From the IMG/VR virus record IMGVR_UViG_2541047913_000007: a stretch of DNA of 64,000 bases; one strand, 5' to 3'. Source of the DNA: a virus. Its lineage: Duplodnaviria > Heunggongvirae > Uroviricota > Caudoviricetes. The translations under genes and the position numbers were made by a program. Under the pieces are notes generated by a model, which saw only the letters and a list, made by a program, of their open reading frames with translations, was not told the origin of the DNA and did no database searches. Of this stretch, positions 2,964 to 39,995 are shown piece by piece (position 1 is the first letter of the stretch; every line of letters begins with the position of its first letter).

Positions 2964-3040
2964 CTTTCAAATGTCCATGTCTGCTATTCGCCTCGTGGTA
3001 CGGCTTTGCGAAGCGTACCGGAATTGAAGCAGTTTTTACG
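2964..3040 (-). promoter_or_regulatory. Putative late promoter pR'/qut region between Q stop and tR'-like terminator
   Basis: Position only, by analogy with lambda Q-pR'-tR' organisation. Confidence 0.3.
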
Positions 3041-3607
3041 TCAAAAAGCAATAACTTTTTTCTCTATACCAAAAGCCATAACCATTGGTTTGTACAAAAT
3101 AAATTCTGCCACCTTTAGCCAATGCTCAATGCGTCTTTCACAGGTTCTTAAACTCCATTCCGGGTGTGCATCATTCAGCAGTTCAGCCATTTTGCGCTTA
3201 GTCATCCCCCGCCCCACATAACGCTGACTCAGGACATTGAGCAGCCCGGGATAGCCTGCCAGGACTTCGCCAATAACCCTGTCGATTATTAACGCCTCTG
3301 AATCGGTACAATGTGCCAGCCAGCTTTTTTGATTGCCGTTGATCATATCCCGCAAAAAAGCCTCAAGTTCAGGTTTGTCCAGACCAGCTTTTTTCATCCT
3401 CCGGAGCGCCTCGTTAATTGCCGTTTTTGTCAGCTTTTTAGAGGTCAGTAATTGGTTGAACATATTTCCCGTCTTACCGCCGCCAATATACGACCAACGC
3501 CCCCACATCCGTAATCGCCCTTGGATCCAGACTGCTTCCAGCGTTTTTAGGCGTAAATGCTCGCCGCTTTTGCCTGTAATTTCCGGATATATCATATTTA
3601 CGCTCAC
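3041..3607 (-). CDS. Late-gene antiterminator Q (lambdoid Q family)
   Basis: 188 aa, directly downstream of rusA with GTGA stop/start overlap, followed by intrinsic terminator; context and size typical of Q. Confidence 0.7.
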   Translation of the reverse strand: MSVNMIYPEITGKSGEHLRLKTLEAVWIQGRLRMWGRWSYIGGGKTGNMFNQLLTSKKLTKTAINEALRRMKKAGLDKPELEAFLRDMINGNQKSWLAHCTDSEALIIDRVIGEVLAGYPGLLNVLSQRYVGRGMTKRKMAELLNDAHPEWSLRTCERRIEHWLKVAEFILYKPMVMAFGIEKKVIAF

Positions 3608-5384: not shown

Positions 5385-5412
5385 AACAAAACCCGCCGAA
5401 GCGGGTTAAGTG
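5385..5412 (-). terminator. Intrinsic terminator downstream of hok (hairpin cccgcttcggcggg plus U-tract)
   Basis: Inverted repeat followed by ttttgtttttt on minus strand. Confidence 0.5.
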
Positions 5413-5475
5413 CGGGTGCGTTGAGGATGCCTGACTCATCAGAGGTGGCGAGGGATTTCTCCCTCGCCAGGTCTC

Positions 5476-5631
5476 TTACTCCTCAGGTTCGTAAGCTGTG
5501 AAGACAGCGACCTCCGTCTGGCCGGTTCGGATTCGTACCTCGCAGAGGTCTTTCCGCGTTACCAGTGCCGTCACAATGACGGTAATACAGATGACGATCA
5601 GGGCGACTAACATCGCCTTTTGCTGCTTCAT
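5476..5631 (-). CDS. hok: Hok/Gef family type I toxin (HokD/RelF-like, 51 aa)
   Basis: MKQQKAMLVALIVICITVIVTALVTRKDLCEVRIRTGQTEVAVFTAYEPEE is near-identical to E. coli HokD. Confidence 0.9.
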   Translation of the reverse strand: MKQQKAMLVALIVICITVIVTALVTRKDLCEVRIRTGQTEVAVFTAYEPEE

Positions 5632-5639
5632 AGCCTGCT

Positions 5640-5720
5640 TCTCCTTGCCTTTCGGCGTGTAAGAGGCTAACCTACATGTGACTAGCATGAAATTGGCCTC
5701 AGATTAATGTTAAGCGTCCT
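5640..5720 (+). ncRNA. Putative Sok-like antisense RNA region opposite the hok/mok leader (position inferred, not delimited)
   Basis: Established hok/sok architecture; no boundaries verified in sequence. Confidence 0.25.
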
Positions 5721-5867
5721 GCAAGACGCATAATGTTAACTGGGGCTTTTCTCTATCTGCCGTTGGTGTTCATGCCCGAGGCAGATAGCCTCAAGCACCC
5801 GCAGCAATTCTACTTAACTCACGTCACCTCGCCAATATGAAATCAATCAGAAAGGTGATCCATAAAA

Positions 5868-6554
5868 TCACTCCTTCTCTTCTTTTCCGTAGTGGAGTTG
5901 GCCAATTTTGATAAGAGGGCGTCCCTGAGATTTGCGGTGTAGATTGGTATCGCGCAGAGAATACACACAGCCACAATATTCCTGCTGATAGAATTTTTCG
6001 CGCTTGCTGATTTCAATCATACGGGACGAGCCGCCCTGCTTGCGCCAGTTATAATCCCAGTACACCATACCCGGATAATGCGCAACAGCTCGCCGCCCAC
6101 ACTCGTTAACCTGCTGCATATTTTTCCAGCGTGAAATGCCCAGTGAACTGCTGATCACACTGAAACCATTTTCAGCAGCGTACAACGCTGTCCGCTCAAA
6201 ACGCATGTCAAAACACATGGTACAACGGATCCCCCTCTCAGGCTCCCATTCCATTCCTTTGGCACGTTCAAACCAGTTGTCGGTGTCGTAATCAGCATCG
6301 ATAAACGGCACGCCGTGTTGTTCAGCAAAGCGAATATTTTCATCCTTACGAATTAAATACTCTTTCTGAGGATGAATGTTCGGGTTGTAGAAAAAGATGG
6401 TGTAGTCGATTCCCGAGGCCTGAAGCGCCTCCATCACTTCACCGGAACATGGAGCACAGCAAGAGTGCAGTAGTAGTTTGTTTGCCCCGTTTGGGAGTTC
6501 CAATTTAGGCCGTTTGAAATCAGCAATAGTCATAAATATTTTTATTGGGGTCAT
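5868..6554 (-). CDS. DUF208 / QueH-like protein (epoxyqueuosine reductase family candidate)
   Basis: 228 aa; N-terminal [14 protein letters not shown] and C-terminal [11 protein letters not shown] cysteine motifs characteristic of DUF208. Confidence 0.6.
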
Positions 6555-6707
6555 GAAAATAGCACAGAGTGTAGCATCAGAGCAGGGCTATCGGGAATAT
6601 ATGTCTAAATCTGGTAATATCTGGTTTTGACGCAAAGCGGACAACCACGCTGGCTCTACCCTGCGCCATGAAAATGTCAATTCACATCTGAACTAATGCT
6701 CTTTAAT

Positions 6708-7103
6708 CTAGTAACGTCTAAAATACCTAACATTTCCTTGATAAAATGCCAGTACACGCTGCATAACTTCGCTCTGGCGGCACTCACGACAAATTATGTT
6801 CTGCCGTCTGTTGTAACGACGTATTTCTCCGTCAGGTAACTTTCGAATCAGTGTCGGGTCAGCAGCCTTCTCCGGTGTCTTACGCCATACGCGATACGCC
6901 TGCTCTGATGGAAATACCCCGCAATCAGAGAGCCAGACATCACCACTGGCCGCAAGCGCACCAGATAAACGACGAATAGCGGTCTTACTGACACCCGTTT
7001 TATCTGCCAGTTGTCGAAAAGTTTCTCGTCCGCTCAGGCGCACGAATTCCACAATGCGCGCCTTCACTTCTTCCCGCTCTTCTGGTGTAAATACTTTTGC
7101 CAT
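6708..7103 (-). CDS. Hypothetical phage protein with HTH-like segment
   Basis: ATG at 7103 preceded by ggagg; segment LADKTGVSKTAIRRL. Confidence 0.45.
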   Translation of the reverse strand: MAKVFTPEEREEVKARIVEFVRLSGRETFRQLADKTGVSKTAIRRLSGALAASGDVWLSDCGVFPSEQAYRVWRKTPEKAADPTLIRKLPDGEIRRYNRRQNIICRECRQSEVMQRVLAFYQGNVRYFRRY

Positions 7104-28994: not shown

Positions 28995-30221
28995 ATGCCG
29001 GTAACTATAACAAAAATCAGAACTGGAGAAGATGTTTTGTCAGCAGCCATTCACCGCATTGAATGGTTGTTTGAAACATTCTCTTCTGTATGTTTATCTT
29101 TTTCTGGCGGTAAAGATTCCACTGTACTTTTCCATCTTGTAGCCGAAGTGGCCTACAGGAAGAAACGTCGTTTTTCTGTATTGTTCATTGACTGGGAAGC
29201 CCAGTATCAATGCACCATTGATCATATACAGAAGATGCGGATGATGTACCAAGATGTAACAGATACCTTTTACTGGGTTGCACTTCCCCTGACGACAGTA
29301 AATGGTGTCTCGCAGTTTCAGCCTGAGTGGATATGCTGGGAGCCCGGTGTAGAGTGGGTTCGACAGCCACCGGAAGATGCTATTACTGATATGGCGTATT
29401 TCCCCTTTTACCGCTACGCCATGACTTTTGAAGAATTTGTCCCAGCTTTTTCTTCCTGGTTCGCAAGTAACCAATGTAGCGTGGCAATACTGACTGGAGT
29501 CCGCGCGGATGAATCTCTTAACAGATTTATGGGACTGGTTTCCCAACGAAAACTGAGATATGCAGATGATAAACCCTGGACCACGGCGTCACCTGAAGGT
29601 TTTTACTACACCATGTATCCGCTGTATGACTGGAAAACCAACGATATCTGGGTATATAACGCTAAAACCTGTGCAATCTACAATCCTCTGTATGATTTGA
29701 TGTACCGTGCAGGCATTCCTCTACGTAATATGCGTGTCTGTGAGCCTTTTGGCCCGGAACAGCGTAAGGGACTATGGCTTTATCATGTTCTGGAGCCAGA
29801 AACTTGGGCACGGATGTGTGAACGAGTATCTGGTGCTGCCAGTGGGGCTCTTTATGCCAATGAAAGCGGGGCCTATTTTGCCCTGCGTAAACGGATGTCA
29901 AAACCATCCCATCATACCTGGCGCAGCTATGCGTTCTTCCTGCTGGACGTAATGCCGGAAAGAACGGCTGAACACTACCGCAACAAGATAGCAGTTTACC
30001 TGCGCTGGTATCAGAACCGGGGATTCCCGGATGATATCCCGGATGAACAGGAAAATGATCTGGGCTGCCGGGATGTTCCCTCCTGGCGACGTATTTGTAA
30101 GACTCTCATAAAGAATGATTTCTGGTGCCGAACGCTCTCCTTCAGCCCCAACAAACCCCGGCACTATGAACGTTACCTGCAGCGTATGAATGAAAGGAGG
30201 AAGGAATGGGGAATTCTGTGA
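28995..30221 (+). CDS. ibrA: IbrA-like PP-loop ATP pyrophosphatase (PAPS reductase family with C-terminal extension)
   Basis: 408 aa; PP-loop SFSGGKDS near N-terminus. Confidence 0.65.
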   Translation: MPVTITKIRTGEDVLSAAIHRIEWLFETFSSVCLSFSGGKDSTVLFHLVAEVAYRKKRRFSVLFIDWEAQYQCTIDHIQKMRMMYQDVTDTFYWVALPLTTVNGVSQFQPEWICWEPGVEWVRQPPEDAITDMAYFPFYRYAMTFEEFVPAFSSWFASNQCSVAILTGVRADESLNRFMGLVSQRKLRYADDKPWTTASPEGFYYTMYPLYDWKTNDIWVYNAKTCAIYNPLYDLMYRAGIPLRNMRVCEPFGPEQRKGLWLYHVLEPETWARMCERVSGAASGALYANESGAYFALRKRMSKPSHHTWRSYAFFLLDVMPERTAEHYRNKIAVYLRWYQNRGFPDDIPDEQENDLGCRDVPSWRRICKTLIKNDFWCRTLSFSPNKPRHYERYLQRMNERRKEWGIL

Positions 30222-30850
30222 CACCAGAGGTGGAGGTGCTGAGCAAGATGATTCGACAGTACTTCAGTCAGGAACAATCTGAAGAGAAAACCATACAGGC
30301 CCTGAACCATCTCCGCTGCGTACTCCATGAGATCAGCCCCTTTGCTCAAGAACCAGTGGACTGTGTGCTGTGGGTAAAAGCGGATGAAATTGTCGCTAAC
30401 GATTATAATCCCAATGTCATGGCCCCAAGCGAAAAAAAATTACTGAAACAATCTCTGGAAAAAGACGGTTTTACTCAACCAATTGTTGTTTCGGAAGAAA
30501 CAAGCCATTACCTGGTGGTGGATGGTTTTCATAGGCAGTTACTAGGTAGAAGAACAGTTACTGGAAAACGCCTGAAAGGCTGGCTACCAGTAACCTGTAT
30601 TAATCCAGACCGAAAGGGACAAACCTCACGTATTGCCGCGACTATCCGACATAACAGAGCCAGGGGGAAACACCAGATAACCTCAATGTCTGATATTGTC
30701 AGAGATCTTTCACGTCTTGGCTGGACTGATGAACGTATCGGAACAGAACTGGGGATGGACCAGGATGAAGTTCTGAGGTTAAAGCAGATTAGCGGGCTAA
30801 CGGAGTTATTTCAGCAGGCAGATTTCAGCCCTGCATGGACTGTTACATAA
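30206..30850 (+). CDS. ibrB: IbrB-like ParB/sulfiredoxin-fold nuclease-domain protein
   Basis: 214 aa; ANDYNPN and VVDGFHR ParB-N-like motifs; 16-nt overlap with ibrA-like. Confidence 0.65.
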   Translation: MGNSVTPEVEVLSKMIRQYFSQEQSEEKTIQALNHLRCVLHEISPFAQEPVDCVLWVKADEIVANDYNPNVMAPSEKKLLKQSLEKDGFTQPIVVSEETSHYLVVDGFHRQLLGRRTVTGKRLKGWLPVTCINPDRKGQTSRIAATIRHNRARGKHQITSMSDIVRDLSRLGWTDERIGTELGMDQDEVLRLKQISGLTELFQQADFSPAWTVT

Positions 30851-30938
30851 AGTTAGGTTAGGCCTGTGGAGCCGGGGAATCGGAATTAAACATCTTCCCT
30901 CCCCGGTAAATACAAATAAGGGCTGAACATCATCCCGA

Positions 30939-31463
30939 CTACCTCAGATCACCTAATAATATATCAAGATTATTTTGCGCATTAATGCTATTCGCCATTA
31001 CTGTTGCTGCTTCTGGCAACTTTCCAAGAGCAATAAATATATTCTTAAGGCTGATTGGAATTGATGAACCATGCGGATCGCGCCACTCACCGCAAATTCT
31101 GTGAGTTTCATCACAAAGCCTGAACGCATCCCAACCTCCATATTGACCAAAAATTATGTCCATTGACTCTATTTCTGCGGGCGATAACTCCCCCAGCTCA
31201 TCAACAGAAGAAAATGTACGCCACATTTCAACCTTATGATCCGCTACATCAGATATCCATGATTCCCACGGACTGTACTCGTTTTCACTTCCATCCTTAA
31301 CCAAAGAATATGTCTGCGATAAAACGGGTCCTTTGTTCATAGAGAAATAATGATCACCACTAATGGGAAAACCATACAACTCCATTGCTTTGCGGTCAGA
31401 GAGATACATCAGCTTAATGAAACGCATAGATCCGCCATGTTTTTTCAGCAAATACGCTGCCAT
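30939..31463 (-). CDS. Panacea (DUF4065, SocA-like) domain protein
   Basis: 174 aa; N-terminal MAAYLLKKHGGSMRFIKLMYLSDR typical of DUF4065. Confidence 0.55.
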   Translation of the reverse strand: MAAYLLKKHGGSMRFIKLMYLSDRKAMELYGFPISGDHYFSMNKGPVLSQTYSLVKDGSENEYSPWESWISDVADHKVEMWRTFSSVDELGELSPAEIESMDIIFGQYGGWDAFRLCDETHRICGEWRDPHGSSIPISLKNIFIALGKLPEAATVMANSINAQNNLDILLGDLR

Positions 31464-31613
31464 TTACGCAACTTTTTCTTCATTAAACATAAATCGGCTC
31501 TCTGTCTCACATGAAATACTCTTTCTGACTATATGTTAATAGCTCCGGTTATTACAGGTTAATGTGTGTTTATTTCTTAATCAGCCCCGCACTTCCGTAC
31601 GGGGCCATTTCTG

Positions 31614-34600
31614 TTAATCCACTCCCACTTTTTTGTTGTACTCGCGGTTAAAGCGATCCACGGCAACCTTCATATCCCGCTCTACCGATTTCACCATCGC
31701 CGCCTGCTGCGCCAGACTGAGAGAACTGTCGGCATAAATGGCATCGCGCTGTTTGCGCAAATCCTTCAGTCTCTTCCGGGTATCCTGCATAAGCCCGTTC
31801 ATCAACAATTTTCCGTTGTTCTCGTCAATGAACGCCGTTCTTTCTGCACCGGTCAGACTCTTCAGCTCTGCGTGATACTGCGCAACCTCTGTCATCCGGT
31901 CGTACATCTTCTGCTGGTCTGCATACGGCATCACCTCACCCGAAATTTTCCCCAGGAAGGGCACCTGCTGCTCCGGTATATCAATACCGTTCAGCGATTT
32001 CACCGCCGCATCTGTGGTTTTGGAAATGAAGCGCCCTGTCCCTCCGGAGATATAGTCAATCCAGAATTTCAGCGATTCCGGTGTGATATCCACCGCGCCG
32101 GGACGATACTGGCTGCCACCTGAGAACGCATTCAGCCAGGATGCAAACGCCTTGTACGCCTCAGGCGTTGAACGTCTGCCCAGTTGGCTGTCCGGTTTCG
32201 GTGTGCCAAATGGCATGTTCTCCTGGTAAATCTGCGCCCCCATGAAGTTTTCATTCATGGCAAGGTTCGCAAACGGACGCAGAATGGTCGGCGCTGCATT
32301 TTTCAGCAATGCCCCGGACAGTGTTTCCGACGTTTCACTGCCCACAGGACTGAATGCCCCCAGGATACCACCGACAACATTACCGGCAGCACGTGAAGCA
32401 GTCAGGTCGCCCGCTGCCACACCTTCAGCAGTATGCCCGAGCAGGAAGAAAACGTTGTACCCGTAAGGCAGAGGAATACTCCAGTACTCTCCGGCCTTGC
32501 CCCCGAACACCGATTTCATAATGACGAGGTTACGCTCTTTCACATGAGACGGCACCTTGTCATACCAGTTAACCCCGTCATCATCCTCCCCCGCAACACT
32601 GCGGTTAAGCGAGCCAAGCAGATAACCCGCTCCCACAGCTGCAAGCGCGATTTTCTGCGGTACATTGAGATTCTTCCAGCGAAGGCGCTCCGGTAACGGC
32701 CCGTCGCCATTAAGATGTCCGAGCGTTCTCACCAGGTTTGCGGTCCCCTGAATGCTGGCGTTGGCAAACATATACAGCGAGTTCATCAGCGCTCCCTGCT
32801 CACCACGACGGTTAAAGTTCACCGTCATGTTTTTGGCAAGAGATGCCGCCTGCTGGCGTGACAAACCGGCATCACGGGCGTGTTTATAGGCAGAAAGACG
32901 CAGAGCGTTTTCAACCGCGCCGTTGGCATCCTCGACCAGGTTCAGGAACGAATGCCATGCACCGATACTCTGGCCTTTCCATCCTCCCTTCGCCAGCGAT
33001 ACAAGGCGATCCATTTCCTTCTGCTGGCCTTCAAGGTCACCCATGTTAAACCAGCCGGTTTTACCTCCATCCTCAACAAACTCTTTCCACACCTTCTGCC
33101 ACTGCGCACCGTTGCCCGTGAGGGTTTTACCACGCAGACTGGCGTATACGGCAGACATGGCAGACCGGCTGTCTTTCACCACAGCCAGGGCGGATAAGTT
33201 ATCCAGCCCTTTCAGTTTACCGTCGCTCCTTCCCTGCTCAGCCTTCAGGTTCATCACCGCCGTCTGCACGTCACGGATGAAGTTACTGACCAGAAATTCC
33301 GGGTTATACGACGTGTTCACCGTTGCCAGGAAACGGTTAACTTTCCCCAGCGTACGGATTACGGCGTTACTGGTTTCCGGCCCCATGTTCTTCATCGCAC
33401 GCATCAGGCGCGGGTCATGGAGTTTGATGTAGTAAGTTTTGCCGTCCTTTTTGGTGGTGAAGTAGCGATCCGCCATCATTGCCATAGGCACCGGACGTTC
33501 AACAACTTCGCGACGGGTTTCGCCGGTTTCCGGATCAACACGCTCTGCAATCGCCCGCATGGTGTCCGGTTTGTCATCAGTGAATACCTGCCAGTAATCC
33601 TTATCGGGATTATCCTGCACCAGTTTCAGGAAGGCGTTACCCACTTCGTTTTTGCGATTGCGGATCAGCGATTCGCTCAAATCCTGTATCGCCTGAGTGG
33701 AAGGAGACTGTGCGCGGGATGCACGCCCCATGGCCTGCCTGCTTTCACGTCCGCCGATGGTGAAGCCCTTACCTGTACGGGGCAGTGACACCACACCGTC
33801 AACATCCTGACCTTTCAGGGGAACGTAGTAACGGTAGGCGTTCTGCCAGGCATCCACCACACCGCTCTCTTCCAGTCCGGCCTCACGGATAAGCTCACGG
33901 CGACGGGCCAGCATATCGTCAACAATCCCTGCCAGACGGTCATACTGTGCCTGTTTGCCACTGTTACGCACACGCTGCATGATTTCCGCCGCTTCCGCGT
34001 TGGTCATCCCCGAACCGCCGTCCGGCATTTTCGGGTTGATTTTCGCGATATGCGCGTTACGTTCCGGCGCGTGACGGGCGTAGAGGTACTCATCCAGATC
34101 GGCCTGCGCAATTTTGTAGTCCGCCAGTAATTTAGCCAGTGGCTGAACGTAGCGCTCCTTCATCACGTTCAGGTCGTTTTCCGCCTTCCCGTGGAAGAGT
34201 TCTTCCGCCATATAAGCGTTGTTACTGTCGTCTATTTTTCCGCCAGTTTTACGGATATTCTCCTGAACAGCTTTCAGCACCTGGAATTTATCCTGCATCT
34301 GGCGCACAAAACGCGATGCAATTGTCTCTTCCGGTGTCAGACTGCTGGTACGGGAGTAATACGGCCCCTTGCGAATATCTTCAGGATAGAGTATTTTATC
34401 TACAGAGCCGCGATAAGAACGCTCCTCTTTGGGCAATTGGAGCCCACTGTACTGAGGGTTATCGCGGCTTAATTTCTCCTTCCGGTAAAGCGTTAATCCA
34501 GCCATTTCCATACTTTTCAGCTTTTTCCCGTTTTCCGTACCGTAAACAGATGCCACCTTGTTAATTTCCAGACGTTTATCTGTCGCCTTCATATGCACTG

Positions 34601-37600
34601 CCGAGACGACCGGATCACCATTTTTATCCACAGCATCAAGCAGCATCACAACCGCATTTCTTTCTGTCGCGGAACGGTAAATTGCATCCGGATTGTGCAT
34701 CAGTTCCGGAAGTCTCTCGATAACATCCATTGGCACCACATGTTTCACGCCATTGGTAGCCTTCCGCACAGTGTCGCGGGAGATAACCAGCGGCAAATCT
34801 GGTGCGCCAAGGTGGCGCAATACCGGCGGCGTACGCCCGATGTTTGCAGTCATTGCACCAGAACGTAACGACTTCATCATTCTGGCAAGGTCATCACGAT
34901 AACGCTCGCCCTCACCTTCCGGCACTTTGAACGGATCAGGCTTACCGCTACGGGAGTACTGAGACGATGCGCCAGCGCCATCCTCACGCGGCGTGTAACC
35001 TTCCCGCACACGCTGGCCTAACGTGCGAATAGTTTCGCGAACAAGTCTGATATCGTTCAGCTCTGTCGGCTTCAGTAACCCCGTGCGACGCAGTACCCCT
35101 TTGACCAGGGCAACAACACGCTCCCACGCCGCCACAAATTTATTCGGCTGTTTCTCCGCCATATGTGCCAGAAATTCACCTGCCTGCACTTCCGGTGATT
35201 CCTTACCATAAGACGCATCAACCTTACGCCAGGCGTCACGGATGGTGGCGTTATCACTGTCACGGGTTTTCAGTACGGTCTTAATAATCGTCTGATATTC
35301 CGCTGGCGTGACTACATGCTCCATTGCATGGTGAATAATCTCGTGACGTAACTTCTCGCGAACGGTCCGCCCGTCAGGGATGTTATCCGCCACCAGGACA
35401 ATTTCACGTTTATCCGGACGATAGAACGCATGCACCCTGCCGTAACCGTCGAACGATTCACCCGCCAGCGCTTCAGCCTCTTTCTGTGACTTCACCACGC
35501 GGACCTTCAGGTCACTGTCCTTAATGCCACTCATCACGCCACGGGCAACCGCTTCAACCTGCGGGACCGGGCTGCCTTTGGCTTCCGCACTGCGGTTAAC
35601 ATCCGAAATGAGATTGCCTTCAGGTGTGCGGGTCACGCCCTTACGGGAATAAAACGCAACGCCCTTGTCCGTCTCACGGGTTTTCAGCGTACTGAACAGG
35701 TGATCGAATGCATCACGAATACCGCCATCCAGTTCCGCATTCGTCGGATAAGCCCAGGTGTTATCTGTGTTGTGCTCAGGTGCCTTACGGATATTGACCA
35801 GATAATCATTCTCCACGCCAGCCGTACGCGCTTTATCCTGAACATAACGCTCAAAGGCACGCGCCGCCATTTCAACATCCGTTGACCAGTACGGTTTTGA
35901 GCGCACCTCATCGAGAAGCGCTGAACGACGCGGCATGTCACTGCTGTTGATCGCTTTCATCACGCCTTTAAACGCGTCGTAAACCTCCTGACGTACCGGA
36001 TATTCCGCATCAACATATCTGCCGTCTTTAAATACGCGCCCGGCACGCTGTGCTTCCGTCATATAGTCGCCACCTGACGTGATCTTCCCGTCAGTGGAAA
36101 CATCATAACGACCAAAATAATTATCCAGTGAATGGAACCATTCGTGGGCCAGCGCCCCCGGTCCGTTACCTTTTGTCAGGTTGATTGCCACCTCACCCGG
36201 CTCATAGTGTGCCGCCGCCTTACCCTTACCACGGGCACCAAAAGCAAGCCCAAGACGACCGTTCAGAGAAAGCGCTTTTGTCGGCACGTTCAGCACATCA
36301 GCCAGGTCATGCAGCGAGTCATAAGCCCGGTTCAAATCAGCCTGACGACGCGGACCTTCCACATAATTACCAAACTGCACACCACGAAAACCAAACGCAT
36401 CACTGAACTGCTCCGGCGAAACATCCCCCTTGCGGCGTTCTGGTCCGGTACGATCGCGGTTGGTGGCGTTACGCTGCTCCTCACGCGAAATCTCCCGCAT
36501 CTCCTTCACATGACGAACAAGCTCATCACGATGTGAATCAATGTACTTACGCGCATCACTGGCTGACTTAAAGCCACCTCTCACCCGCATTTTGTTTTTG
36601 CCGTAAGCGATAAAAATATCGCCACTACGGGTATTCCGGTAAACGTCAAAGCTGATTTTGTCATCTGGTGACGGTGCTGTTTTTTCATCACCTTTCGCCC
36701 GTGACTTTTCCTCCTGCTCTGCAAACCAGGCTTTCGCCTTTGTCAGTAATTCATCCCTGCTTTCCGAGAAAAAGAGGTTACTCCCCTTATTGTCCTTATT
36801 GCGCAGTGAATAAAGTTTCTGTGGCGGATCGTAACGCTTCCCTCCGGCCGCCTGATACACACCGGATACCACCCGATAAGCAGAAGCCTTGTCCATCTGT
36901 GAAGGTGGCAGCGTGCGTAACAGTTGCCAGGTATCCGCATAACGGGAAGGCATTCTTCCCTCCATCCACTCAGCAAGCCGTCCGGCAGTCACTTTTCCTT
37001 CCAGCATTCCCGCCACGCTTGTGCGGATGCTCTTTACACTCTCCACCCACTTCACCGCATTGAGTTTCGTTTTCGCGGGAATATCACTGCGGTACAGCGC
37101 AATCATTGCCAGTGTGTCAGCGTCGGCCCCTTCGTTCGCCAGTTTTGCATAGTCCGGTTTCGGGAACACTTTGCTCAGCGGCTGCGTGAAATAATCCCTG
37201 TCTTCCAGCGTTTTACCCAGTGTTTCGGCAAGCTGTGCATAACGGTGTTTTGCCGCGCCCTTAATCTCCTCACCAAAGTCTTCAATTTTTGCACCACGCG
37301 CCTGCTGGTGAGTGCTCGGTTTATCTACCGGCACCGGCACCGGCACCGGCACCGGCACCTCAGTATCCGGAACATCGGTTATGGTCTGGCGATTATCCCC
37401 GGTCTGTCTGCGCGCTTCTGCCTGCTGTGCCAGTTCCGGAAGGGAGTCACGAACCATACGAGGGAGTGATTCAGGATGTGGCATATCAACCCCACGCTGT
37501 TCAGGTGCAGGAAGTCCTTCACGCACTGGTGCTGTGGCGTTCTGCTCATCCGGTGATGGCAGACCACGACGAACCGGTTCGCCCTCCAGTATTTCCCCCT

Positions 37601-39995
37601 GGCGACCAGCGGCATTTTCCGGTGCCTGCGCACGTCCTTTCTGGAAACTCTGGCCCTTCACCTCACCGGTTGTGGTAAAACGACCACCACGTCCGGCCTG
37701 ATTTTCATCCGGCGTACGCGCCACTTCTCCTGGTAACGGATATCCCTGTCCGGGATGAATATCGCCGGGAGCGGGAAGGCGTGGACGCTCAGTTAACTCC
37801 TGTGCTGTCGGACCGGCATCACCTTCAGCCATCTGTGAACGTACAAGCTCCTCTGCCGTCGGCGCGTTGCCACGGGCAAGGCGGGCCTGCACTTCTGTAT
37901 CATCCCCCGTGAAACCACGGAATCGCGGGTCACGCATGAACGCGGGCTGCTCCATCGGTTCAGCATCAGCAATACGCTCTCCGTCAGCCAGGGTGTTAAT
38001 GGTCTCCGTTGCCACATCTTCAGAGAACGCAGGATTATCCATTTCAACGGCATACTGATTCTCGCCTTTCTTCACTACGGACGGTTTCAGGCCGGTGGCG
38101 CTGGCATTGCGGAAAACGTCGCTCCCCAGAGCACTTTTTTCATCCGTGAAATAACGGTTGTCCGGACGCACCTTTTCAATGCGTTCTGCTGGTCTGGACG
38201 CACCACTCCCGTTAATTTCAATACGAACTTCATCCGGATCGCGGAACCGCACCGTCGGGTAAATACTCCCGTCGCCATCATCCGCATTTTCCGGCTGTGG
38301 CTGTGCCTCCGGTCTGGCCTCCTGCTGAGGGCGAAGCACATCACGGATAGCCTGTAACTGCTGCTCTTCAGTATCAGTACGCCCTTCCTTCAGGCTGAGT
38401 TTTCGGTATTCCTCAAGCAGTTCAGGGCGCGGCTTCGCCTTCAGCTCATCCATCACCGCCTGTCGCTTCGCCTGTTCATCCAGTTCATTTAACAGCTGGC
38501 TGGCGGCTTCCCGGCGATGAACGGCAGACGTGTCTCCCTCAGGTGCCATATCCGCATCAGCATACTGTTCCAGAAGTTGCTCGCGATTCATGCCCTGCAT
38601 GGATTCGCGATGCTGTGCCACCGGATCAGCCGGTTCGGGTTGCGGGGCTGCTTCACCCTGCTGTACGACTTCAGCCTCACGCATGGCGGTTTCTTCTGCG
38701 GCCTGACGTTTTCCACGATATCCGGCAACCGCACCGAACGGTGCGCCCATCGCTGCACCAAGAGCGGCTCCTTCGATCGTTGCGTCAGCTACCCCCTCCC
38801 ATGGTGATATATCCATTCCGGCAGTCTCACGCAACGTCATATTTTCCTGGTAACGCGAATAGCCGCCCTGCGCCGCATTAATCGTCCCCTGTTCCGTGGC
38901 ATTTCTGACAATGCCGCTTTTAACGGTCTTCGCCGTGCCCCGCATCGCCAGATTAAACAACTGAGCATCGCCCAGTTTTGCCGCCATGGCATTCACAGCC
39001 AGCAATTCAGGATCGGTTGCCAGCTGCGCGCGCACCTCATCGGCAACACGCTCTTTTGCCAGATCCATTTTCTGGCGATCAGTAAGCTGTGCGTGCTGCG
39101 GATCTGCATCAATTGACAAAAACGTCTGCTGAAATTTCGGGGACTTCGCCAGCTCAGAGTAATCCGCGTTAAGAACAGAGTCTGCTGCTGCCATTGCACT
39201 CTGCCCCTGTGCGCTGGCTGAGGAATGGGTGATCAGGCCTGCCTGGAATAAATCCGGCATTTTTTTATCGACAGCTTCTGCTGCCAGTGCGGTAGCTCTT
39301 TCCGGCTGCATCCCTGCCGCAATGTATTTTTTCTCCAGCCCGGCGGTCAGCACTTTTCGCAGAGTGACTTCACCCAGCTTTTTAGTCACACCGCCTGCAA
39401 CCATATCAGGTACAAGGGCACCAATCAGGTTTACGCCCTTCGCCACCCAGACCGCAGAATCATCATATCCTTCAGTCATCGGTGTATTCAGCGCCCGCTG
39501 CGCCCCCGGCGACATCTTGCCAGTCAGCCATTCATCCGAGGCTTTAGCGCCGCCACTGACTGCCTTGCCTGTGACCTTCAGACCTTTACCGACAGTATCA
39601 GTAACCGCATTTTTTCCATCAGGCAGAGTGTCGATGACCTCATCCGCCCCCTTGCTGCCACCGACAAAAATATCCTGAACAGTTGCGACTCCCGGCAGCC
39701 CCATACGGCTGAACTCATTTAAAATACGCGCCCCTGTTTTTACCGGGTTCTGAATCATCGCATCACCGAGTCCACGGGCCATTTCCCCTGCCCCCCGGAC
39801 GGACTGGGCGACACCTTTCCCCATAGTTGGCAATACATCGCCCAGGCTGAACGACGTGCTGTTGTCCTTCCAGCGATTGGGATCGGAGAAAAACGCATCA
39901 TAGCTGTCAGTCTCGCCCGGCTGCTGAATGTTCAGGCTGTTGCGGTTCTGGTTGCCAAATTGCGCTTCAGGGCGCTGTTCATCGGAATAAGCCAT
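31614..39995 (-). CDS. Giant 2793-aa virion-associated/polyvalent-type protein with two HExxH zincin-like motifs and acidic Pro-rich linkers
   Basis: Single uninterrupted ORF; ALAHEWFHSLDNYFG and LRHEIIHHAMEHV; PVPVPVPVPV tract. Confidence 0.75.
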   Translation of the reverse strand: MAYSDEQRPEAQFGNQNRNSLNIQQPGETDSYDAFFSDPNRWKDNSTSFSLGDVLPTMGKGVAQSVRGAGEMARGLGDAMIQNPVKTGARILNEFSRMGLPGVATVQDIFVGGSKGADEVIDTLPDGKNAVTDTVGKGLKVTGKAVSGGAKASDEWLTGKMSPGAQRALNTPMTEGYDDSAVWVAKGVNLIGALVPDMVAGGVTKKLGEVTLRKVLTAGLEKKYIAAGMQPERATALAAEAVDKKMPDLFQAGLITHSSASAQGQSAMAAADSVLNADYSELAKSPKFQQTFLSIDADPQHAQLTDRQKMDLAKERVADEVRAQLATDPELLAVNAMAAKLGDAQLFNLAMRGTAKTVKSGIVRNATEQGTINAAQGGYSRYQENMTLRETAGMDISPWEGVADATIEGAALGAAMGAPFGAVAGYRGKRQAAEETAMREAEVVQQGEAAPQPEPADPVAQHRESMQGMNREQLLEQYADADMAPEGDTSAVHRREAASQLLNELDEQAKRQAVMDELKAKPRPELLEEYRKLSLKEGRTDTEEQQLQAIRDVLRPQQEARPEAQPQPENADDGDGSIYPTVRFRDPDEVRIEINGSGASRPAERIEKVRPDNRYFTDEKSALGSDVFRNASATGLKPSVVKKGENQYAVEMDNPAFSEDVATETINTLADGERIADAEPMEQPAFMRDPRFRGFTGDDTEVQARLARGNAPTAEELVRSQMAEGDAGPTAQELTERPRLPAPGDIHPGQGYPLPGEVARTPDENQAGRGGRFTTTGEVKGQSFQKGRAQAPENAAGRQGEILEGEPVRRGLPSPDEQNATAPVREGLPAPEQRGVDMPHPESLPRMVRDSLPELAQQAEARRQTGDNRQTITDVPDTEVPVPVPVPVPVDKPSTHQQARGAKIEDFGEEIKGAAKHRYAQLAETLGKTLEDRDYFTQPLSKVFPKPDYAKLANEGADADTLAMIALYRSDIPAKTKLNAVKWVESVKSIRTSVAGMLEGKVTAGRLAEWMEGRMPSRYADTWQLLRTLPPSQMDKASAYRVVSGVYQAAGGKRYDPPQKLYSLRNKDNKGSNLFFSESRDELLTKAKAWFAEQEEKSRAKGDEKTAPSPDDKISFDVYRNTRSGDIFIAYGKNKMRVRGGFKSASDARKYIDSHRDELVRHVKEMREISREEQRNATNRDRTGPERRKGDVSPEQFSDAFGFRGVQFGNYVEGPRRQADLNRAYDSLHDLADVLNVPTKALSLNGRLGLAFGARGKGKAAAHYEPGEVAINLTKGNGPGALAHEWFHSLDNYFGRYDVSTDGKITSGGDYMTEAQRAGRVFKDGRYVDAEYPVRQEVYDAFKGVMKAINSSDMPRRSALLDEVRSKPYWSTDVEMAARAFERYVQDKARTAGVENDYLVNIRKAPEHNTDNTWAYPTNAELDGGIRDAFDHLFSTLKTRETDKGVAFYSRKGVTRTPEGNLISDVNRSAEAKGSPVPQVEAVARGVMSGIKDSDLKVRVVKSQKEAEALAGESFDGYGRVHAFYRPDKREIVLVADNIPDGRTVREKLRHEIIHHAMEHVVTPAEYQTIIKTVLKTRDSDNATIRDAWRKVDASYGKESPEVQAGEFLAHMAEKQPNKFVAAWERVVALVKGVLRRTGLLKPTELNDIRLVRETIRTLGQRVREGYTPREDGAGASSQYSRSGKPDPFKVPEGEGERYRDDLARMMKSLRSGAMTANIGRTPPVLRHLGAPDLPLVISRDTVRKATNGVKHVVPMDVIERLPELMHNPDAIYRSATERNAVVMLLDAVDKNGDPVVSAVHMKATDKRLEINKVASVYGTENGKKLKSMEMAGLTLYRKEKLSRDNPQYSGLQLPKEERSYRGSVDKILYPEDIRKGPYYSRTSSLTPEETIASRFVRQMQDKFQVLKAVQENIRKTGGKIDDSNNAYMAEELFHGKAENDLNVMKERYVQPLAKLLADYKIAQADLDEYLYARHAPERNAHIAKINPKMPDGGSGMTNAEAAEIMQRVRNSGKQAQYDRLAGIVDDMLARRRELIREAGLEESGVVDAWQNAYRYYVPLKGQDVDGVVSLPRTGKGFTIGGRESRQAMGRASRAQSPSTQAIQDLSESLIRNRKNEVGNAFLKLVQDNPDKDYWQVFTDDKPDTMRAIAERVDPETGETRREVVERPVPMAMMADRYFTTKKDGKTYYIKLHDPRLMRAMKNMGPETSNAVIRTLGKVNRFLATVNTSYNPEFLVSNFIRDVQTAVMNLKAEQGRSDGKLKGLDNLSALAVVKDSRSAMSAVYASLRGKTLTGNGAQWQKVWKEFVEDGGKTGWFNMGDLEGQQKEMDRLVSLAKGGWKGQSIGAWHSFLNLVEDANGAVENALRLSAYKHARDAGLSRQQAASLAKNMTVNFNRRGEQGALMNSLYMFANASIQGTANLVRTLGHLNGDGPLPERLRWKNLNVPQKIALAAVGAGYLLGSLNRSVAGEDDDGVNWYDKVPSHVKERNLVIMKSVFGGKAGEYWSIPLPYGYNVFFLLGHTAEGVAAGDLTASRAAGNVVGGILGAFSPVGSETSETLSGALLKNAAPTILRPFANLAMNENFMGAQIYQENMPFGTPKPDSQLGRRSTPEAYKAFASWLNAFSGGSQYRPGAVDITPESLKFWIDYISGGTGRFISKTTDAAVKSLNGIDIPEQQVPFLGKISGEVMPYADQQKMYDRMTEVAQYHAELKSLTGAERTAFIDENNGKLLMNGLMQDTRKRLKDLRKQRDAIYADSSLSLAQQAAMVKSVERDMKVAVDRFNREYNKKVGVD
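37327..37356. repeat. Hexanucleotide tandem repeat (ACCGGC)x5 inside giant gene, encodes (PV)5
   Basis: accggcaccggcaccggcaccggcaccggc. Confidence 0.8.

Follow-up and report, generated by a model that had tools for sequence, protein, structure and literature searches.

A 174-amino-acid (aa) Panacea-domain open reading frame (ORF), designated panA' here and located downstream of the giant virion gene of a 933W-like prophage, is most probably what remains of a PanA-PanT type II cassette in decay, namely its antitoxin half, orphaned and partly damaged. It resides in an IMG/VR virus record of which a stretch of 64,000 nucleotides, "the window," was analyzed as a whole. The evidence seen here comprises the homology of the protein, the identity and predicted fold of the partner encoded beside its relatives, the lesions in the window allele, and a series of decay states at the same site in sister phages. 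The original prediction had offered an orphan antitoxin as one of three readings, and this was the right category: the partner gene was lost, and a stub of 6 codons was left behind.

The Panacea ORF and its surroundings

The predicted product of panA' matched the Pfam model SocA_Panacea (PF13274) with an E value of 2.5e-19 and 70.7 bits, above the gathering score of 25.7 bits, with residues 16 to 127 aligned to model positions 2 to 112/113. The assignment to the Panacea (DUF4065) domain, which had been made from the letters of the DNA, was therefore correct. A RefSeq entry identical to the window protein is named "Panacea domain-containing protein" (WP_032144006.1). In a comparison with the PHROG profiles, the match to phrog_1281 began at profile position 15, and a local hidden Markov model (HMM) of PanA aligned to panA' from position 10 onward. 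This domain is shared with the SocA-SocB system of Caulobacter crescentus, on which PF13274 was founded. SocA serves ClpXP as an adaptor to promote the degradation of SocB and is not a binding inhibitor. Unlike SocA, panA' has no SocB-like partner at its locus, and the partner of its relatives has a predicted MazF fold.

The window prophage is a 933W-like short-tailed lambdoid (Sepvirinae), inserted beside ynfF. Over the 1.8 kb surrounding panA', identity was 100% to several Escherichia coli chromosomes and 99.3% to phage PhiR5_2. The stretch between the giant gene and the prophage end varies among phages; it carried the Panacea gene, ibrB, ibrA, and antA in the window and L0135, L0136, hokW, and others in 933W. 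In the accessory region of 933W, a stretch of about 420 bp downstream of L0135 was 91.6% identical to window positions 5404 to 5820; the window may therefore contain another prophage, or the remnant of one, with accessory sequence in common with 933W.

The placement of the gene had also been described correctly: panA' was located on the same strand exactly 150 bp past the 2793-aa gene and was convergent with ibrB (Table 1). The earlier statement that the gene is solitary and has no small partner on the same strand was borne out by a scan of both flanks. The 88-bp downstream spacer at positions 30851 to 30938 contained no ORF of at least 20 aa, and positions 31464 to 31613 contained only short ORFs that were off-frame or antisense.

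Table 1. Features of the panA' locus in the window and of the corresponding site in 933W (locus L002)
Feature	Position	Strand	Basis or remark
ibrA	28995-30221	+	Pfam PAPS_reduct/DUF3440; RefSeq name
ibrB	30206-30850	+	Weak Pfam ParB_N match; RefSeq name; convergent with panA'
panT stub (lost toxin)	30886-30933	-	DNA alignment with paired loci; blastn of 933W locus
panA', 174-aa Panacea-domain ORF	30939-31463	-	Ancestral PanA codons 10 to end; ORF list, translation
9-bp repeat unit AAGCTGATG (K-L-M), one copy	31407-31415	-	Family consensus is two copies
panA ancestral 5' end	31464-31490	-	ATG at 31488-31490, then TAA at 31464-31466; sequence and alignment
Giant gene/panA spacer	31491-31613	-	Conserved across Sepvirinae
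Hairpin, 10-bp, GC-rich, just past the giant-gene stop	31583-31606		-20.5 kcal/mol, z -4.9 versus shuffles
Giant gene, 2793-aa polyvalent virion protein	31614-39995	-	Pfam LPD5, LPD1, MuF_C, LPD38
933W L0135, 62-aa "hypothetical protein," internally deleted PanT	L002 3755-3943	-	phrog_1925
933W unannotated 31-codon ORF, panA stub	L002 4008-4103	-	395-bp deletion

The spacer and the 3' end of the giant gene had matches in 186 phage records and 979 genomes of E. coli, and identity was 96 to 98% in the matches listed. The hairpin just past the giant-gene stop was likewise conserved across Sepvirinae; a U-tract was lacking on the minus strand, but on the plus strand the hairpin was followed by a T-rich run. 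It may terminate either the late operon or convergent transcription. A sigma-70 promoter scan of the spacer yielded no sites. The only terminator-like call in the spacer scan was positioned inside the panA 5' end and looked spurious. A hairpin between panA' and ibrB did not exceed shuffled sequences in stability (z -0.09).

Paired relatives and the fold of the partner

The closest full-length homologues of PanA were encoded in an E. coli P2-like prophage (69% identity), a Salmonella lambdoid (59%), and Mixta and related contigs (57 to 58%). All of them had a gene for a 133- to 142-aa protein directly 3', which overlapped the PanA gene by 4 nt or followed after a gap of about 9 nt. For a count of such pairs, HMMs were built for the PanA and partner families and run on loci retrieved with the PanA alignment. 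The partner was found directly downstream of PanA in 77 of the 78 determinable GTDB loci, which represent species-representative genomes, and in 71 of the 79 IMG/VR loci. PanA was positioned just upstream in all nine GenBank phages that encode the partner. The premise of the original prediction that Panacea proteins are usually toxin-paired antitoxins holds for these genomic and viral relatives. Five of the eight unpaired IMG/VR loci were the window's own allele, and one, L154, had a partner stub of 47 aa; a solitary PanA was rare at genome loci (1 of 78) and at viral loci outside the window lineage (3 of 74). L154 stems from an unrelated IMG/VR phage, in which a full-length PanA is followed by this stub (positions 3031 to 3174), so that the same fate was reached there independently.

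The cassette of PanA and partner also occurred in P2-like, lambdoid, and integrase-adjacent contexts without the giant gene. Intact copies were located at positions 5974 to 6944 of locus L010 (E. coli P2-like prophage), 4001 to 4989 of L014 (prophage between zur and yjbJ), and, in Salmonella-type lambdoids, 3943 to 4877 of L011 and 5001 to 6049 of L013. The hotspots occupied were the gap between the gpA side and the portal gene of P2, the position beside the integrase at the zur site, and the interval between Q and the lysis genes. A PADLOC v2 scan of PanA and the partner gave no matches. The intact cassette of PanA and a MazF-fold protein is a candidate anti-phage or addiction module.

An AlphaFold2 (AF2) model of the partner, with a pLDDT of 97.1, displayed the MazF/Kid fold with an SH3-like barrel. 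The partner of 130 to 140 aa can thus be predicted confidently to be a MazF/Kid-fold toxin. Its family comprised 2169 cluster representatives at an E value of 1e-3 or below in an exhaustive HMMER search. Comparison with Pfam, using single sequences and 84 family members, identified no model with a significant match. Membership in PemK_toxin (PF02452) failed, with a single sub-threshold match (E = 0.11) among these 84 partners. The partner profile yielded no match among the PDB sequences.

The partner family is very probably the toxin cluster T6 of Kurata et al. (2022, PMC8832971). This gammaproteobacterial PanT cluster was described with the order antitoxin then toxin and with overlaps of -1 or -4; its toxins have no CDD match but an HHpred match to EndoA/PemK/MazF. 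The only validated T6 member, from Pseudomonas moraviensis, inhibits translation and is neutralized by PanA (Kurata et al. 2022). The connection was made by strain and architecture and not by accession sequence: the partner HMM matched a protein at locus L104 of Halomonas (Vreelandella) stevensii S18214 (E = 1.5e-47; ATGA overlap), a locus that the PanA HMM matched as well, and Dataset S1 of that study places H. stevensii S18214 in T6 with the order A|T and an overlap of -4. Neither the window protein nor the E. coli zur-site pair was among the accessions of this dataset. The relatives of panA' agree with T6 in several respects: the Panacea antitoxin stands alone and carries no additional N-terminal domain, the order is antitoxin-toxin with a 4-nt overlap or a distance of a few nucleotides, and the partner of 130 to 140 aa has a predicted MazF/Kid fold and no Pfam or CDD match. 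Arrest by the toxin and neutralization by PanA via complex formation have been demonstrated for other pairs, including a T6 member. By homology to T6, the toxin lost from the window was presumably a translation-inhibiting endoribonuclease that was neutralized by direct binding of PanA.

Lesions in the window allele and decay in sister phages

The window differs from a T6 pair in three lesions: the toxin gene is reduced to a stub of 6 codons, codon 9 of the antitoxin gene is a nonsense codon, and three residues of the antitoxin are deleted. The toxin stub begins with ATGATGTTCAGCCCTTAT at positions 30916 to 30933, which codes for MMFSPY, compared to MSFTPYRRGT in intact partners and MMFTPYRRGTI in L0135 of 933W. 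Homology to panT stopped at about 30915/30916, after approximately 6 codons, and the frame reached a stop after 15 codons; the blastn match of the 933W locus to the window covered positions 31013 to 30916. A tblastn search of the 64-kb window with the intact partner gave no other trace of a toxin. The ibrAB cassette abuts the junction that removed panT.

At the other end of the gene, the ancestral 5' end consisted of the ATG and seven sense codons (MFNEEKVA), followed by a TAA that abuts the annotated ATG. In the alignment, the codon at this position, ancestral codon 9, was CAA (Gln) in 933W, in 75/02 Stx, and in three paired homologues; CAA was likewise the codon of all relatives compared, and the N-terminus "MFxExKxAQMAAYLL" was conserved in the PanA family. 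The TAA at ancestral codon 9 indicates that the annotated ORF is a restart at Met10.

The third lesion concerns the 9-bp repeat unit AAGCTGATG. One copy was present in the window, 933W, and 75/02; two copies in CDC03-98 and L018; and three in cM8a (by locus, two copies in L005 and L018 and three in L003). Two copies represent the family consensus KLMKLL/M, so that the window protein is without three residues, of which K and L are at least 90% conserved. This variation in copy number resembles the product of strand slippage in a gene undergoing decay.

Between the window and PhiR5_2, panA contained four non-synonymous and no synonymous changes, compared to no changes in ibrB, two synonymous changes in ibrA, and none in either spacer. 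One further non-synonymous panA change was present in L012, which made all five within-lineage substitutions non-synonymous. D150N, S158L, and Y170N (ancestral numbering) were derived in the window allele relative to its relatives. The pattern is only suggestive of relaxed constraint, with five substitutions being too few for an estimate of selection, and four of them, which lie within 93 nt, may have come from one recombination patch. The 174-codon body of panA' contained no further frameshift or stop and kept all invariant and nearly all of the at least 90% conserved residues of the family. Measured against a working PanA-PanT pair, however, panA' fails on the adjacent toxin gene and on the full-length antitoxin frame. 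The window gene derives from the PanA-PanT family but is no working toxin-antitoxin pair.

The same site in sister phages was surveyed with a 29-mer from the panA 5' end, which retrieved 30 IMG/VR loci; together with the annotated loci, 38 were compared. All loci with a Panacea body had the TAA at codon 9, and all loci with CAA were cut to 31, 60, 63, 66, or 91 aa. The body-keeping forms encoded either 174 aa or, due to the in-frame loss of 78 bp from the Panacea core, 148 aa. The large majority of Sepvirinae lost the Panacea body, in at least five different ways; at this site it was kept in about 2% of loci, with 1 case among 186 phage records and 18 among 979 genomes of E. coli. No intact 183-aa panA and no intact toxin gene after the giant gene was found in IMG/VR, among the GenBank phages, or in the complete genomes of E. 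coli, of which 5426 were covered; this search comprised a distant blastn comparison of the P2-like module with the complete E. coli genomes and the 29-mer scan of IMG/VR.

In 933W, a 395-bp internal deletion removed the core of panA but kept both ends, resulting in the 31-aa stub. The window and 933W have in common the site after a giant LPD5/LPD38 gene, the spacer, and the first 27 to 40 codons of panA. They differ in what was kept: 933W lost the Panacea core and retains an internally deleted toxin, whereas the window retains the Panacea body and has lost nearly all of the toxin. The intact partner matched phrog_1925, the profile of L0135, at an E value of 6.5e-10. The widespread stubs of 60 to 91 aa (phrog_3658 and phrog_28947) are further deletion products.

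These states can be arranged into a course of events. An ancestral 933W-like phage (Sepvirinae) would have carried panA-panT as a moron right after the giant gene and the late operon. In the window lineage, a deletion would have joined about codon 6 of the toxin to the end of the ibrAB cassette; in 933W, an internal deletion would have inactivated the toxin instead. With the toxin gone, the antitoxin would have become dispensable and could accumulate lesions such as the nonsense codon 9 and the loss of K-L-M. A nonsense mutation in the antitoxin should be tolerable only without the toxin, and for the window lineage, this fits a loss of the toxin first. Ribosomes that terminate at the TAA may reinitiate at the abutting ATG and so still produce the 174-aa protein, and late transcripts that depend on Q could extend beyond the hairpin past the giant-gene stop into panA'. 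At present, panA' probably has no required function.

Alternative roles and biological meaning

Three features stand against a mere relic, namely, the intact body, the TAA-ATG layout suited for reinitiation, and the persistence of the allele. They are compatible with a recently orphaned gene and also with retention for a function. Such a function could be that the 174-aa PanA, made by reinitiation or late read-through, neutralizes T6-type PanT toxins of other prophages or of host defence islands, in counter-defence or as an anti-addiction gene. This is unlikely on balance, although several observations speak for it. All invariant family residues are kept in the body, and the TAA allele persists in PhiR5_2, an active phage grown on K-12, as well as in 18 or more E. 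coli genomes with differing hosts and chromosomal positions. Possible targets exist in E. coli with the P2-like hotspot locus, the PanA of which is 69% identical, and the prophage locus at the zur site. Two substitutions were able to broaden the specificity of PanA (Kurata et al. 2022, PMC8832971). Against the reading, published work describes PanAs as cognate-toxin specific. A precedent is provided by orphan antitoxin-like counter-defence genes of phages, for instance against DarTG1, which resemble panA' as phage-borne antitoxin homologues without a toxin; they are reportedly intact, conserved, and experimentally active (PMC11825919), whereas panA' is damaged and mostly deleted in sister phages. 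Retention for such a role is further opposed by the loss of the body, which most Sepvirinae deleted in at least five ways and about 2% of the loci kept, by the nonsense codon, by the loss of 12 conserved N-terminal residues, by the exclusively non-synonymous substitutions observed, by the spacer scan without a promoter consensus, and by the rarity of a solitary PanA elsewhere.

The two other proposals of the original prediction did not withstand the comparison of loci. It is highly improbable that panA' confers immunity to a toxic domain at the C-terminus of the giant virion protein. Only its position speaks for such a role, with the same strand and a distance of 150 bp, but the cognate toxin of the family is encoded by a separate downstream gene with a predicted MazF fold, and in P2-like, lambdoid, and other settings, the cassette exists without the giant gene. 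Pfam assigned LPD38 and no toxin domain to the C-terminus of the giant protein. In 933W-type phages, the last approximately 195 codons of the giant gene are conserved at 96.5% DNA identity, yet these phages contain only the 31-aa PanA stub; across the 933W-type phages listed, with 96 to 98% identity in this 3' end, stubs of 31 to 91 aa are left. Co-inheritance of the Panacea body with the 3' end of the giant gene fails, given the 1 copy kept among the 186 phage records and the 18 among the 979 genomes of E. coli. An accessory module with ibrAB, in which panA' would be a component or regulator beside a PAPS-reductase-like and a ParB-like protein, has just as little probability. The window ibrB allele was present in 19 complete E. 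coli genomes, in all of which the Panacea gene is adjacent, and a sensory role for Panacea has been proposed (Ernits 2023). These 19 genomes, however, form one near-identical lineage, so that the co-occurrence of ibrAB and panA' counts as a single event, and the adjacency coincides with the deletion junction at which the toxin was lost. Homologues of ibrB with about 81% identity occur in about 800 genomes of E. coli with no panA adjacent, and homology stops at the ibrB stop. The genes are moreover convergent and form no operon, and the relatives of PanA are paired with the MazF-fold gene and not with ibrAB. IbrA itself weakly matched the PADLOC models BrxP and DndC.

Biological importance is improbable for panA' itself. 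Should it nevertheless be used, it would represent a counter-defence or anti-addiction gene that arose from a domesticated antitoxin, directed, for instance, against the PanAT of the E. coli P2 hotspot. The intact cassette, in which PanA is joined by the unnamed MazF-fold partner family of more than 2000 cluster representatives, recurs in prophage hotspots and has no counterpart in PADLOC v2. Several "hypothetical proteins" of Stx phages, including L0135 of 933W and the stubs of 31 to 91 aa, are explained as debris of one PanA-PanT cassette. The locus is a natural series of toxin-antitoxin decay in prophages, in which the window lineage would have lost the toxin first and the antitoxin after.
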